Notes: generated from the letters alone by a model not told the origin. Positions 14,583-20,835 are shown, numbered from the stretch's first letter. The stretch: DNA of 64,000 bases from Candidatus Dormibacteria bacterium (GCA_049511615.1 JBEKXW010000009.1:12703-76702); one strand, 5' to 3'. Numbers and translations: made by a program.

Positions 14583-16217
14583 TTGACCCCTCGCCGACTT
14601 GAGCTGACACCGCTTCCCGACCTGCTCCACGGGGCGCCCCGCGCCGGCGCCGTGAGGACCCGCCGTCCCGTCTACGTCGACCTGCTGCCTCCCTGCAACG
14701 CCGGCTGCCCGGCGGGCGAGAACATCCAGGCCTGGCTCGGATTCGCGCGCGATGGGAAGCACGAGGAGGCCTGGCGCCAGCTGGTCGCCGACAACCCGCT
14801 CCCCGCCATCCACGGGCGGGTCTGCTACCACCCCTGCGAGGACGTCTGCAACCGCAAGGAGCTGGACAGCTCGGTCTCGATCCACGCGGTCGAGCGCTTC
14901 CTGGGCGATCTCGCCCTGGAGCGGGGCTGGGCGTTCCCCGCGCCCCCCGCGCCGAGTGGGAAGCGGGTGCTGGTGATCGGGGCCGGCCCCAGCGGGCTCT
15001 CCGCCGCCTACCAGCTGGCCCGGCAGGGGCACCAGGTGGAGATCCGGGACCTGAGCTCCGAGGCGGGCGGGATGATGCGCTACGGCATCCCCGCCTACCG
15101 GCTGCCCCGCGACGTGCTGGCCGCTGAGATCGCCCGGGTCGAGGCGCTCGGGGTGCGCTTCGTCCGCGAGCACCGGGTGACCGACTTGGCCGCCGAGAGG
15201 GCCGAGGGCGGCTTCGACGCCGTCTTCGTGGCGGTCGGTGCCCACCTCTCCAAGCACGTCGACATCCCGGCCCGGGACGCGGGGCGGATCTACGACGCGG
15301 TGTCGTTCCTCCGCGACGTCGCCGCCGGTGGCGAGCCGGTGGTCGGCCGCCGGGTCGCCGTCTACGGCGGCGGCAACACCGCGATGGACGCCGCCCGGGT
15401 CGCCAAGCGGCTGGGTGCCAGCGACTCGATGATCGTCTATCGCCGCAACCGGGAGAGGATGCCGGCCCACGAGGATGAGGCCGACGCGGCCGAGCGCGAG
15501 GGGGTGCGGATCAACTGGCTGCACACCATCACCGCCTTCGAGGGACCGGAGCTGACCGTCGAGGTGATGGAGCTGGACAAGACCGGCTTCCCGCAGCCCA
15601 CCGGCCGGTTGGAGAAGCTGGCCGCCGACACCCTCATCCTGGCCGTCGGACAGGACGCCGACACCGGGTTCCTGCGCCGCGTGCCGGGGGTGGAGTTCAA
15701 GAGCGACGGCACGGTCATCGTCTCGGCCTCGATGATGACCGGCTGCCCGGGCGTGTTCGCGGGCGGGGACATGGTTCCCGCCGAGCGGACGGTCACCGTG
15801 GGCGTCGGCCACGGGAAGAAGGCCGCCCGGTTCATCGGCCAGTACCTGCAGGGGGCGGAGGCGGGCGTGGCCGCCAAGCACGACCTGGCCAGCTTCGACC
15901 GGCTCCACCCGTGGTACTTCGCCGACGCCCATGCCCGGCCCCAGCCGGAGCGGGAGCCGGGGGAGCGGGTGGCGGACTTCGCCGAGATCGTCGCCGGCCT
16001 GAGCGAGCAGGCGGCGGTCTTCGAGGCGCAGCGCTGCCTCTCCTGTGGCAACTGCTTCGAGTGCGACGGCTGCCTGGGCTCCTGCCCGGAGGATGCGGTG
16101 GTCAAGCTCGGGGTGGGGCACCGATACCGGTTCGACTACGACCGCTGCACCGGCTGCGGGACCTGCTTCGAGCAGTGCCCCGTGCATGCCATCGACATGG
16201 TCGGGGAGCCTCAGTGA
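14583..16217 (+). CDS. Glutamate-synthase-small-subunit-like (GltD/PreT/SudA family) NAD(P)H flavoprotein with C-terminal 2x[4Fe-4S] ferredoxin domain
   Basis: N-terminal Fe-S motif CNAGCPAGENIQ...CYHPCEDVC, FAD/NAD sites VLVIGAGPSGLSAAY and VAVYGGGNTAMDAAR, C-terminal CLSCGNCFECDGC...CTGCGTCFEQCP. TTG start at 14583; a downstream GTG is also possible. Confidence 0.8.
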   Translation: MTPRRLELTPLPDLLHGAPRAGAVRTRRPVYVDLLPPCNAGCPAGENIQAWLGFARDGKHEEAWRQLVADNPLPAIHGRVCYHPCEDVCNRKELDSSVSIHAVERFLGDLALERGWAFPAPPAPSGKRVLVIGAGPSGLSAAYQLARQGHQVEIRDLSSEAGGMMRYGIPAYRLPRDVLAAEIARVEALGVRFVREHRVTDLAAERAEGGFDAVFVAVGAHLSKHVDIPARDAGRIYDAVSFLRDVAAGGEPVVGRRVAVYGGGNTAMDAARVAKRLGASDSMIVYRRNRERMPAHEDEADAAEREGVRINWLHTITAFEGPELTVEVMELDKTGFPQPTGRLEKLAADTLILAVGQDADTGFLRRVPGVEFKSDGTVIVSASMMTGCPGVFAGGDMVPAERTVTVGVGHGKKAARFIGQYLQGAEAGVAAKHDLASFDRLHPWYFADAHARPQPEREPGERVADFAEIVAGLSEQAAVFEAQRCLSCGNCFECDGCLGSCPEDAVVKLGVGHRYRFDYDRCTGCGTCFEQCPVHAIDMVGEPQ

Positions 16218-19831: not shown

Positions 19832-20835
19832 TGAAGCTCGACACCACCTACCTGGGCCTGGCCCTGTCGAATCCCCTGGTGGCCTCCGCCGGCCCGCTGT
19901 CGCGTAGCGTCAGCGGCATCCGGCGGCTGGCCGCGGCCGGCGTGGGCGCGGTCGTCCTGCCGTCGCTCTTCGAGGAGCAGATCCGGCGCGAGGCGGAGAG
20001 GGACGCCAACCTCGTCGAGGCGGGCAGTGAGAGCTTCGCCGAGGCGCTCACCTACATCCCCCTCCCGGTCTCCGACGGTCAGCCCCACCAGTACCTCAGC
20101 CTCATCGAGCGCGCCCGGGCGGCGGTCGCGATCCCGGTGATCGCGAGTCTCAACGGCGCGACGGCCGGCGGGTGGGCGGAGTACGCCACCTCCATGCAGG
20201 AGGCGGGCGCCTCCGCTATCGAGCTCAACATCTACTACCTGCAGGGTGACCCATTCGACCCCGGCCGCACGGTGGAGGAGCGGTACGTCGAGATCCTGCG
20301 CACGGTGCGAGCGGCCGTCACCATCCCGATCGCCGTGAAGCTGGGCCCCTACCTCAGCTCGGTGGGGGAGATGGCCACCCGCCTTCACGAGGCGGGCGCC
20401 GACGGCCTGGTCCTCTTCAACCGCTTCATGCAGACCGACATCGATGCCGCCACCCTCACGGTGAGCGCGGGGCTCCCACTCTCCACGCCCGCCGAGGCCA
20501 CCCTGCCCCGCGCCTGGATCGCCCGCCTGCGCGACAAGGTTCCGCTGTCCCTCGCTGCCACCAGCGGCGTGGAGAGCGCCACCGACGTGGCCGCCTACCT
20601 GCTGGCCGGGGCCGACGTGGTCATGACCACCTCGTCCCTGCTCCGCCATGGCCCCGAGCACGCCGCCGAGCTGATCGACGGACTGCAGGCCTGGATGGAG
20701 CGCAAGGGCCTCCAGAGCCTCGACCAGGTGCGCGGGCGGCTCTCGATGGCGGCTGCCGCCGATCCGTCGGCGTACGGGCGGTCCAGCTACCTCACCACCA
20801 TCGAGCAGGCGACCCGGGTCTACGCCCCCAGCTGA
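19831..20835 (+). CDS. Dihydroorotate-dehydrogenase-like (PreA/DHOD class 1 family) FMN protein without a ferredoxin tail
   Basis: TIM-barrel DHOD-like signature (LSNPLVASAGP..., AIELNIYY, VKLGPY, LVLFNRF). 1-nt overlap with the por stop. Confidence 0.8.
   Translation: MKLDTTYLGLALSNPLVASAGPLSRSVSGIRRLAAAGVGAVVLPSLFEEQIRREAERDANLVEAGSESFAEALTYIPLPVSDGQPHQYLSLIERARAAVAIPVIASLNGATAGGWAEYATSMQEAGASAIELNIYYLQGDPFDPGRTVEERYVEILRTVRAAVTIPIAVKLGPYLSSVGEMATRLHEAGADGLVLFNRFMQTDIDAATLTVSAGLPLSTPAEATLPRAWIARLRDKVPLSLAATSGVESATDVAAYLLAGADVVMTTSSLLRHGPEHAAELIDGLQAWMERKGLQSLDQVRGRLSMAAAADPSAYGRSSYLTTIEQATRVYAPS

Follow-up and report, generated by a model that had tools for sequence, protein, structure and literature searches.

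A pyruvate:ferredoxin oxidoreductase operon of Candidatus Dormibacteria with two predicted redox partner proteins

We analyzed a stretch of 64,000 nt from Candidatus Dormibacteria with a GC content of ~72% (in the following called the window), in which three co-oriented open reading frames (ORFs) lie head to tail on the + strand between positions 14583 and 20835. The first gene (14583..16217, TTG start, 544 aa) encodes a GltD-like iron–sulfur (Fe-S) flavoprotein that ends in a ferredoxin domain and is here called GltD-Fd; the second, por (16217..19831, ATG start, 1204 aa), encodes a single-chain pyruvate:ferredoxin oxidoreductase (PFOR); and the third (19831..20835, ATG start, 334 aa) encodes a protein resembling dihydroorotate dehydrogenase (DHOD), the DHOD-like protein, whose sequence is identical to the deposited MGA2283383.1. 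The GC content at third codon positions (GC3) was ~0.9 in all three ORFs, which is the value expected for real genes in DNA of 72% GC. Stop and start codons overlap in the sequence TGATG both at the GltD-Fd/PFOR junction (16215..16219, + strand) and at the PFOR/DHOD-like junction (19829..19833, + strand), with the A of the stop codon being common to the next ATG, and the three genes are predicted to be translationally coupled and to form one operon. A preliminary description of this DNA had given coordinates, the 1204-aa length of the PFOR and the two TGATG junctions, all of which proved correct to the base. The domain content was also as described there: by Pfam, the inventory equals that of dihydropyrimidine dehydrogenase (DPD) or PreT/PreA plus a PFOR.

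The unusual TTG start at 14583 appears to be real, because the closest GltD-Fd orthologues carry an ATG at the aligned position behind a conserved GGAG. In the window this ribosome-binding site lies at 14571..14574 (+ strand), 8 nt before the TTG, and it is kept upstream of the orthologues. The preceding intergenic region of ~470 bp (14110..14582, + strand) contains no high-GC3 ORF and presumably holds the operon promoter. Within this upstream region we found no match to a sigma-70-type consensus, no notable terminator and no Rfam family or riboswitch. An AT-rich patch, AATCCTTATTTTTGTGATG, is located at 14488-14506, ~80 nt before the start of the operon and amid DNA of 72% GC; it is partly common to a single close relative (L004), is absent from the other close relatives and may be a promoter or operator element.

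GltD-Fd was recognized over aa 16-541 by the model PRK12771 (‘NAD(P)-binding protein’, GltD-like with a C-terminal dicluster) with 755.7 bits against a cut-off of 516. Its Pfam domains are an N-terminal Fe-S domain (Fer4_20, aa 36-115, E = 5.5e-23; 14688..14927, + strand), Pyr_redox_2 (aa 128-411) and a 2x[4Fe-4S] dicluster (aa 490-539), the last lying in a C-terminal ferredoxin domain that spans aa 485-541 (16035..16205, + strand; Pfam Fer4, Fer4_7 and Fer4_21). To describe conservation we aligned 66 orthologues with the query (n=67). The N-terminal cysteines 38, 42, 81, 85 and 89 as well as the ten cysteines of the ferredoxin domain were kept in 67 of the 67 sequences, and both glycine-rich dinucleotide motifs, for flavin adenine dinucleotide (FAD) and for NADPH, were invariant. 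The least conserved stretch is the linker in front of the ferredoxin domain (about aa 421-484; 15843..16034, + strand), where the query residue was kept in a fraction of 0.44-0.57 of the orthologues, compared to 0.7-0.9 in the rest of the protein. The first CxxC of NfnB is absent from the N-terminal Fe-S domain, and the corresponding domain of DsrL likewise lacks the first pair of cysteines (PMC7596348). A YRR motif at aa 286-288 (15438..15446, + strand) was invariant in 67/67 sequences. This motif has been assigned to 2'-phosphate binding of NADP(H) in T. maritima NfnB and in DsrL-2 (PMC7596348), and it leads us to predict that GltD-Fd is of the NADP(H) type.

The models of glutamate synthase and its relatives did not recognize the protein: GltD-Fd reached 225 bits with TIGR01318 (cut-off 483), 182 bits with TIGR01317 (cut-off 448) and 286 bits with the gltA model TIGR01316 (cut-off 472), and it also stayed below the cut-offs of YgfK, AegA and PRK12814. 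No gene for a gltB-like large subunit was present among the neighbouring genes examined. With the GltD models missed and no adjacent gltB, we rejected an assignment as glutamate synthase small subunit. The closest solved relatives of the body of GltD-Fd were NfnB-type modules, namely 9bov, 9n5u (‘NfnA’), 8oh5_C and P. furiosus NfnI (5jca_L), with E-values of 1e-75 to 1e-89, while solved GltD and DPD structures were more distant. Searching with the ferredoxin tail alone, we obtained the polyferredoxin MvhB, FwdF, RnfB and PorD as top solved matches; DPD was not among the 60 best, and the PorD_KorD model reached 43.5 bits (cut-off 60). The tail therefore looks like a generic clostridial-type dicluster module, and descent from the tail of DPD or PreA was rejected as DPD fell outside those 60 matches. 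By its sequence, GltD-Fd is best described as a GltD/NfnB/DsrL-like Fe-S flavoprotein with Rossmann folds for FAD and NADP(H).

The product of the middle gene is a canonical single-chain pyruvate:ferredoxin (flavodoxin) oxidoreductase. It was matched by TIGR02176 with 1698.8 bits over aa 4-1182 (cut-off 911.35), its set of Pfam domains is complete (POR_N, PFOR_II, POR, EKR, Fer4 and TPP_enzyme_C), and it could be aligned end to end with the enzymes of Moorella thermoacetica (6cin, 1300 bits) and Desulfovibrio africanus (1b0p). Enzymes of this family convert pyruvate and coenzyme A (CoA) to acetyl-CoA and CO2. The NCBIfam models PadG and PadI match the protein weakly. It ends at aa 1204 with no additional domain, and its C-terminal 20 aa are not conserved. 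We also considered whether PFORs paired with a DHOD-like protein are a distinct type; this was rejected, since those of the wider set described below are 55-63% identical to the window PFOR and look similar to the PFOR of M. thermoacetica.

The DHOD-like protein was recognized by PRK07565 (‘dihydroorotate dehydrogenase-like protein’) with 427.6 bits against a cut-off of 303. DHO_dh is its sole Pfam domain and is matched weakly (49 bits); an Fe-S domain is absent. Of the PyrD models the best was that of class 1B (PRK07259), with 94.6 bits against a cut-off of 269, while all class 2 models remained below 40 bits, and PreA gave 79.4 bits against 335. PRK07565 is a large family, because a search with representatives returned ~900 clusters at 50% identity with E-values up to 1e-30. 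For the analysis of residue conservation we aligned 119 diverse members of the family and used the numbering of L. lactis DHOD A for comparison; as catalytic base we regarded Cys130 of DHOD A (Ser in class 2 PyrD), which is Cys671 in pig DPD. The active-site sequence ELNLSCPN of DHOD A is aligned to ELNIYYLQ in the window protein, and the family consensus is ELN[ILV]Y[YFH], so that the catalytic loop has lost its Cys-Pro and carries a conserved Tyr instead. The position of Lys43, which binds orotate and flavin mononucleotide (FMN) in DHOD A, is occupied by P, H, Y or R in the 119 members, and that of Asn67 by Pro. Other features of a flavin site are retained: Lys170 (Lys164 of DHOD A) is invariant, Asn133 (Asn127 of DHOD A) is present in 94% of the members, the phosphate-binding glycines are kept and Gly246 is conserved. 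In addition, the family has conserved residues of its own, namely Asn108, Trp115, Phe196-Asn197-Arg198, Ser218, Trp229 and a C-terminal ...ERA.Y motif with Arg317. An AlphaFold2 model (mean confidence score, pLDDT, 82.9) matched domain IV of DPD and DHOD A/B about equally, with template modelling (TM) scores of ~0.67-0.69 at 20-23% identity, and thus confirmed, at the level of prediction, a barrel fold of the DHOD/DPD type. Judged by these residues, the protein is neither a DHOD nor a DPD, because it has neither the Cys required for catalysis nor the Lys and Asn that bind pyrimidines, and the window protein contains no cysteine at all. It is a probable flavin barrel, with FMN as the predicted flavin.

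We compared the gene order around the DHOD-like gene in two sets of loci. Set A resulted from a genome scan with the DHOD-like protein and comprises 80 loci with DHOD-like proteins of at least 58% identity from Actinomycetota, Dormibacterota and one Chloroflexia metagenome-assembled genome (MAG); among the carriers are Mycobacterium spp., Actinoplanes, Nakamurella, Jatrophihabitans, Austwickia, Solirubrobacterales and Gaiellaceae. We observed PFOR sequence directly upstream of the DHOD-like gene in all 79 informative loci, and a GltD-Fd gene with the ferredoxin tail upstream of por in 69 of 72. The conservation of the triplet in related genomes, for which the preliminary description had asked, was thereby found, and because the arrangement recurs in nearly all of the 80 related genomes it is far beyond chance. 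Two loci (L014 and L020) have por and the DHOD-like gene and no GltD-Fd. In one locus only the last 46 codons of por are left upstream of the DHOD-like gene (L048:7840-7977), which suggests a deletion, a rearrangement or an assembly break, and in another the por match falls into two pieces split at aa 738 (L020:6589-6590), which suggests a frameshift; in both cases the module may be decaying, or the MAG sequences may contain errors.

Set B was obtained by scanning metagenome contigs with a profile built from distant representatives of the family and comprises 80 loci whose DHOD-like proteins are 37-51% identical to that of the window. In 57 of the 61 loci that were informative, the DHOD-like gene was preceded by a full single-chain PFOR (55-63% identical) ending at most 220 nt upstream, whereas a GltD-type gene preceded por in 3 of 33 informative loci and was lacking in the remaining 30. 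Three further long contigs, one of them annotated as Armatimonadota, also carry por and the DHOD-like gene and no gltD. In the three positive loci (L147, L160 and L101) the upstream gene is of the GltD type and has no ferredoxin tail. The one that we examined (L147:249-2612) encodes a fused NfnA-NfnB-type protein of 788 aa that reached 999 bits with PRK12778 and 1536 bits with PRK12775. This suggests that a GltD-family NAD(P)H module was recruited independently to this place. In L147 a gene for subunit A of the Na+-translocating NADH:quinone oxidoreductase (Na+-NQR) follows the DHOD-like gene.

When both sets were combined, por was adjacent to the DHOD-like gene in 136 of 140 informative loci (~97%). 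Members without linkage to por (L081, L082, L134, L157 and L162) were still above the PRK07565 cut-off, and the distant relatives, including the unlinked ones, scored 373-505 bits. A recurrent third gene was not observed, as no candidate occurred in more than 8 of the ~60 loci of the wider set; the commonest neighbours, each in at most 8 loci, were response regulators, universal stress proteins, ADP-forming acetyl-CoA synthetase/Pat, Rrf2-like regulators and rubrerythrin. Sporadic neighbours of the pair or of unlinked DHOD-like genes (in L085, L088, L134, L157, L162, L082 and L086) were rubrerythrin/ferritin, 1-Cys peroxiredoxin, universal stress, CBS and CoA-binding proteins, ADP-forming acetyl-CoA synthetase/Pat and an iron-dependent repressor with FeoAB; they suggest themes of stress, iron or acetyl-CoA. 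The longer members of the DHOD-like family (P0181, P0235, P0225 and others) have only unrelated or chimeric extensions such as a response regulator or a deoxyhypusine synthase. Taken together, the stable evolutionary unit is por with the DHOD-like gene, which is found in several phyla, and GltD-Fd is a clade-specific addition.

These findings change the picture given in the preliminary description, in which the flanking genes were seen as the two halves of a DPD-like enzyme interrupted by PFOR. It had named a grouping of the flanking proteins with glutamate synthase or strict DHOD as a refuting outcome; this was not observed, since they belong to PRK12771 and PRK07565 and lie far below the GltD, PyrD and PreA cut-offs. 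The two halves, however, do not belong together: because the DHOD-like gene follows por without a GltD-like gene across the wider PRK07565 family, its partner is PFOR and not GltD, and an obligate pair of GltD and barrel in the style of PreT-PreA is contradicted by the 30 of 33 loci outside Actinomycetota, Dormibacterota and Chloroflexia that have no GltD-like gene. The ferredoxin tail had been equated with that of DPD and turned out to be the generic dicluster described above, attached through a poorly conserved linker as in DsrL. A PFOR-driven reduction of a pyrimidine-like substrate at the FMN site is likewise at odds with the absence of the catalytic Cys and of the equivalents of Lys43 and Asn67. 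The proposed multi-subunit analogue of pyruvate:NADP+ oxidoreductase holds up as the best reading for the GltD-Fd part.

We estimate a probability of roughly 0.5 that the operon encodes a PFOR with two dedicated redox partners, i.e. a multi-subunit pyruvate:NADP+ oxidoreductase plus an FMN-carrying, PFOR-specific barrel partner. According to this model, PFOR would oxidize pyruvate and CoA to acetyl-CoA and CO2, and the electrons would leave through its three [4Fe-4S] clusters. The ferredoxin domain of GltD-Fd, sitting on a flexible linker, would pick them up and the N-terminal clusters of GltD-Fd would pass them to FAD and on to NADP+, so that the net activity would be that of a pyruvate:NADP+ oxidoreductase of several subunits which is independent of free ferredoxin. 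The DHOD-like protein would be an FMN-carrying electron-transfer partner of PFOR, acting either as a converter between one- and two-electron steps or as a second outlet. We infer the physical complex, the binding of FMN, and the route and direction of the electrons.

For GltD-Fd an outlet to NADP+ is the best reading because the invariant YRR fits NADP(H). In DHOD B and DPD, barrels of the DHOD family are known to pass electrons to or from Fe-S clusters; for this reason, and because the flavin-phosphate and Lys164-type residues are kept while substrate-binding and catalytic residues are lost, we favor an FMN-dependent electron-transfer partner for the third protein. Experimental work on relatives is consistent with the NADP+ outlet proposed for GltD-Fd: stand-alone NfnB/GltD-like proteins have been shown to be ferredoxin:NADP+ reductases (PMC9365771, PMC12221290), DsrL hands electrons to its partner enzyme by means of a ferredoxin tethered through a linker, and genes of DsrL architecture are often directly linked to por/vor genes (PMC7596348). 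In Propionibacterium a corresponding triplet is co-transcribed and co-regulated, and the knockout of its PFOR cripples growth (PMC7650540).

Several observations weigh against this model. The Lys43 equivalent, a flavin contact in DHODs, is not conserved in the DHOD-like family. The DHOD-like protein must do something that is independent of NADP+ reduction, since its gene and por mostly occur in the absence of GltD. The transfer of electrons from pyruvate to NADP+ needs no FMN protein, either thermodynamically or structurally, because Fe-S clusters can pass electrons directly. The nearest solved relatives of the GltD-Fd body are bifurcating, so a linear route to NADP+ is not the sole possibility. 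Among the longer members of the DHOD-like family we found no fusion with PFOR or GltD. Finally, a full-text literature search retrieved the arrangement in PMC7650540 only and returned no biochemistry on any member.

Unlikely in our view, but with some weight behind it, is an Nfn-like bifurcation or confurcation. The FAD of the GltD-like protein would then be the bifurcating flavin, the Fe-S chain and the ferredoxin tail would form the low-potential branch to or from PFOR, and the FMN of the DHOD-like protein would form the high-potential branch to quinone or another acceptor. The outcome would be NAD(P)H produced from low-potential pyruvate electrons together with a high-potential donor, e.g. 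quinol, or in reverse a pyruvate synthesis driven by NADPH. Such a mechanism has been proposed for the Propionibacterium triplet on the basis of co-transcription, co-regulation and a redox-balance argument (PMC7650540), and nfn genes are sometimes clustered with PFOR (PMC6405883). It would agree with the bifurcating NfnB-type modules that are closest to the GltD-Fd body and with the three unrelated loci in which a GltD-type gene lies upstream of por and the DHOD-like gene, with the NfnA-NfnB-type fusion in one of them (L147). However, neither the operon nor the neighbouring genes examined include an NfnA/PyrK-like subunit with FAD and [2Fe-2S], the DHOD-like protein has no Fe-S cluster, no Cys and no membrane or quinone-site feature, and most pairs of por and the DHOD-like gene lack any GltD-type gene. 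Moreover, stand-alone NfnB-like proteins act as simple ferredoxin:NADP+ reductases (PMC12221290, PMC9365771).

Somewhat more doubtful is the idea that the DHOD-like protein stands off the main electron path and protects, activates or regulates PFOR, for instance as an electron drain or by scavenging O2 in aerobes, with GltD-Fd being an ordinary co-expressed ferredoxin:NADP+ reductase. We know of no precedent for such a protective role. Many of the carriers belong to aerobic soil lineages and the sporadic neighbours include rubrerythrin/ferritin, peroxiredoxin and universal stress proteins, although none of these stress-type neighbours is frequent, and the tight translational coupling and the adjacency of ~97% point to a stoichiometric partner instead.

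We consider it improbable that GltD-Fd and the DHOD-like protein form a reductase similar to DPD or PreT/PreA, in which the FMN site would reduce a small molecule with PFOR or NADPH as donor. The domain inventory equals that of DPD, the barrel model is structurally nearest to DPD domain IV, with a TM score of ~0.68, and the conserved Tyr135, Asn108, Trp115, Asn197-Arg198, Ser218 and Trp229 line the former active-site region, where they could form a new substrate pocket. This is opposed by the loss of the catalytic Cys and of the pyrimidine-binding Lys and Asn, by the occurrence of the DHOD-like gene after por without GltD in most lineages and by the generic nature of the ferredoxin tail, and no recurring metabolic gene nearby hints at a substrate.

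An incidental adjacency of ordinary gltD and pyrD genes, as might be read from automatic annotations such as ‘glutamate synthase small chain’ and ‘dihydroorotate dehydrogenase (fumarate)’, is refuted with next to no doubt by the family scores (the curated GltD, PyrD and PreA cut-offs are far from reached, those of the proteins' own families exceeded), by the absent catalytic residues, by a gene order kept in 136/140 loci and by the lack of gltB or pyr genes among the neighbouring genes examined.

The arrangement as such is already known, having been described for Propionibacterium in 2020 (PMC7650540), and the window adds a member from Dormibacterota. The mechanism put forward there, a quinol-dependent confurcating (Nfn-like) complex, was offered as a hypothesis only, and por with the DHOD-like gene was not remarked upon as a wider unit. 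A literature search for PRK07565 or ‘DHOD-like’ gave nothing relevant, and NCBI annotates the genes consistently as ‘DHOD-like protein’ and ‘NAD(P)-binding protein’. New in our analysis are por and the DHOD-like gene as the conserved core, the loss of the DHOD and DPD catalytic residues from the barrel family, and a GltD-Fd partner that is DsrL-like and predicted to be of the NADP(H) type.

PFOR has a central place in carbon metabolism under anaerobic and microaerobic conditions, and schemes usually show free ferredoxin or flavodoxin as its sole acceptor. The addition of GltD-Fd is found in abundant soil lineages, namely Dormibacterota, Actinomycetota and Chloroflexia. If the two partner proteins are real subunits, many PFORs would have a built-in electron outlet, models of pyruvate oxidation, NADPH supply and ferredoxin pools would change, those for industrial propionibacteria included, and automated annotation would have reason to drop the labels pyrD and gltD. 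A farther-reaching proposal, which we advance tentatively and would not bet on, is that the PRK07565 barrel is an unrecognized and near-obligate redox subunit of a large, multi-phylum subclass of single-chain PFORs and that in Actinomycetota, Dormibacterota and Chloroflexia the two form, with the NfnB/DsrL-like protein, a three-flavoprotein bifurcating or confurcating complex that couples pyruvate oxidation to NADP(H), with a higher-potential partner at the FMN site. If true, aerobic soil bacteria would possess a bifurcating 2-oxoacid oxidoreductase of a new type.

Beside the operon, an unrelated cluster of redox and sulfur-carrier genes lies upstream on the + strand (5715-14106). It encodes a DsrE2-like protein (5715-6608), two TusA-like proteins (6612-6905 and 7282-7557), an MvhD/VhuD-like protein (7430-8002), a protein of 901 aa made up of HdrA segments and an inserted GltD/PRK12771-like module (8012-10714), a 596-aa HdrA-like protein (10714-12501) and an HdrB/D-like protein with a CCG domain (12931-14106). 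Its gene content is suggestive of an Hdr-like complex that is linked to NAD(P)H and has a sulfur relay. We rejected this cluster as a part of the por operon, as none of the 80 related loci has it in the flanks. Downstream, 42 nt after the DHOD-like gene, we found a major facilitator superfamily (MFS) transporter of the sugar or drug efflux type (20877..22073, + strand; Pfam MFS_1). An MFS homologue is located downstream only in the four closest relatives (L001-L004), at varying distance, and none of the remaining 76 genome loci has one; the gene may extend the operon in the Dormibacteria clade and is outside the conserved unit. It is followed by a PMT_2/YkcB-type glycosyltransferase (22141-24465, - strand), a family 2 glycosyltransferase (24543-25466, + strand) and a HAMP/HisKA histidine kinase (25614-27023, - strand); the genes of the region 22138-25469 and the histidine kinase belong to the usual envelope and signalling repertoire and have no connection with the operon. 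A tRNA-Gly at 1489-1563 was called by both ARAGORN and Rfam. The tRNA-Leu(CAG) called by ARAGORN at 30199-30270 (+ strand) is probably a false positive; it is below the Rfam tRNA gathering score and lies inside a high-GC3 ORF of the opposite strand (29211-30530).

Among known systems, the pyruvate:NADP+ oxidoreductase (PNO) of Euglena and Cryptosporidium is a single fusion of PFOR with a cytochrome-P450-reductase module, which consists of a flavodoxin-like FMN domain and a FAD domain similar to ferredoxin:NADP+ reductase. The likeness to the window operon, which is predicted to lead from pyruvate oxidation to NADP+ as PNO does, is functional only, as the modules in the window are separate proteins of unrelated folds (a TIM barrel and a GltD-like protein with Fe-S clusters); the YRR motif and the gene linkage support the prediction of such an activity for the operon. 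In the NAD+-dependent phenylglyoxylate:acceptor oxidoreductase PadEFGHI of Azoarcus, a core of the 2-oxoacid:ferredoxin oxidoreductase (OFOR) type is nicotinamide-linked through ferredoxin-like and FAD subunits. Compared to the window operon its OFOR core is multi-subunit, its substrate is another one and it has no DHOD-like component. DPD and PreT/PreA have the same cofactor domains as the proteins of the window, i.e. a GltD-like FAD/NADPH module with two Fe-S clusters, a 2x[4Fe-4S] domain and a DHOD-like barrel. In contrast to the window barrel, however, the barrel of DPD and PreA has the catalytic Cys, the pyrimidine-binding residues and a ferredoxin domain of its own, which in the window is part of another polypeptide. 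In the window, por stands between the genes for GltD-Fd and the barrel, and in loci that have no GltD-like gene the barrel gene still comes after por.

NfnAB and the stand-alone NfnB-like reductases (PMC6405883, PMC9365771, PMC12221290) are related to GltD-Fd through NfnB, which is homologous to its body (E = 1e-75 to 1e-85 against solved Nfn chains), and a connection between low-potential electrons of Fe-S clusters and NADP(H) is expected for GltD-Fd as well. Unlike NfnAB, the operon has no NfnA, and GltD-Fd carries an extra ferredoxin domain; its genetic linkage is to PFOR and to a protein that resembles PyrD and not PyrK. DsrL (PMC7596348) has the same order of domains as GltD-Fd: an N-terminal Fe-S domain without the first CxxC, FAD and NAD(P) folds, a linker and a C-terminal 2x[4Fe-4S] domain; DsrL-2 and GltD-Fd both carry the YRR motif. 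Both proteins would follow one principle, in which a tethered ferredoxin connects the nicotinamide site with an Fe-S enzyme as partner, this partner being DsrAB for DsrL and PFOR for GltD-Fd, and the linker measures ~100 aa in the former compared to ~60 aa in the latter. Homologues linked to por were explicitly excluded from DsrL, for which the criteria include an organism containing dsrAB and no direct link to por/vor (PMC7596348); the GltD-Fd gene overlaps the start codon of por, and no dsrAB was identified among the annotated genes of the window. The closest counterpart is the PFOR cluster of Propionibacterium (McCubbin et al. 2020, PMC7650540), which by its description has the same content and order: an NfnB-like ‘glutamate synthase small chain’ that carries an additional ferredoxin domain, PFOR and a ‘dihydroorotate dehydrogenase-like’ gene. 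Propionibacterium belongs to a different phylum, yet both it and the window fall into the Actinomycetota/Dormibacterota clade in which the triplet is conserved.

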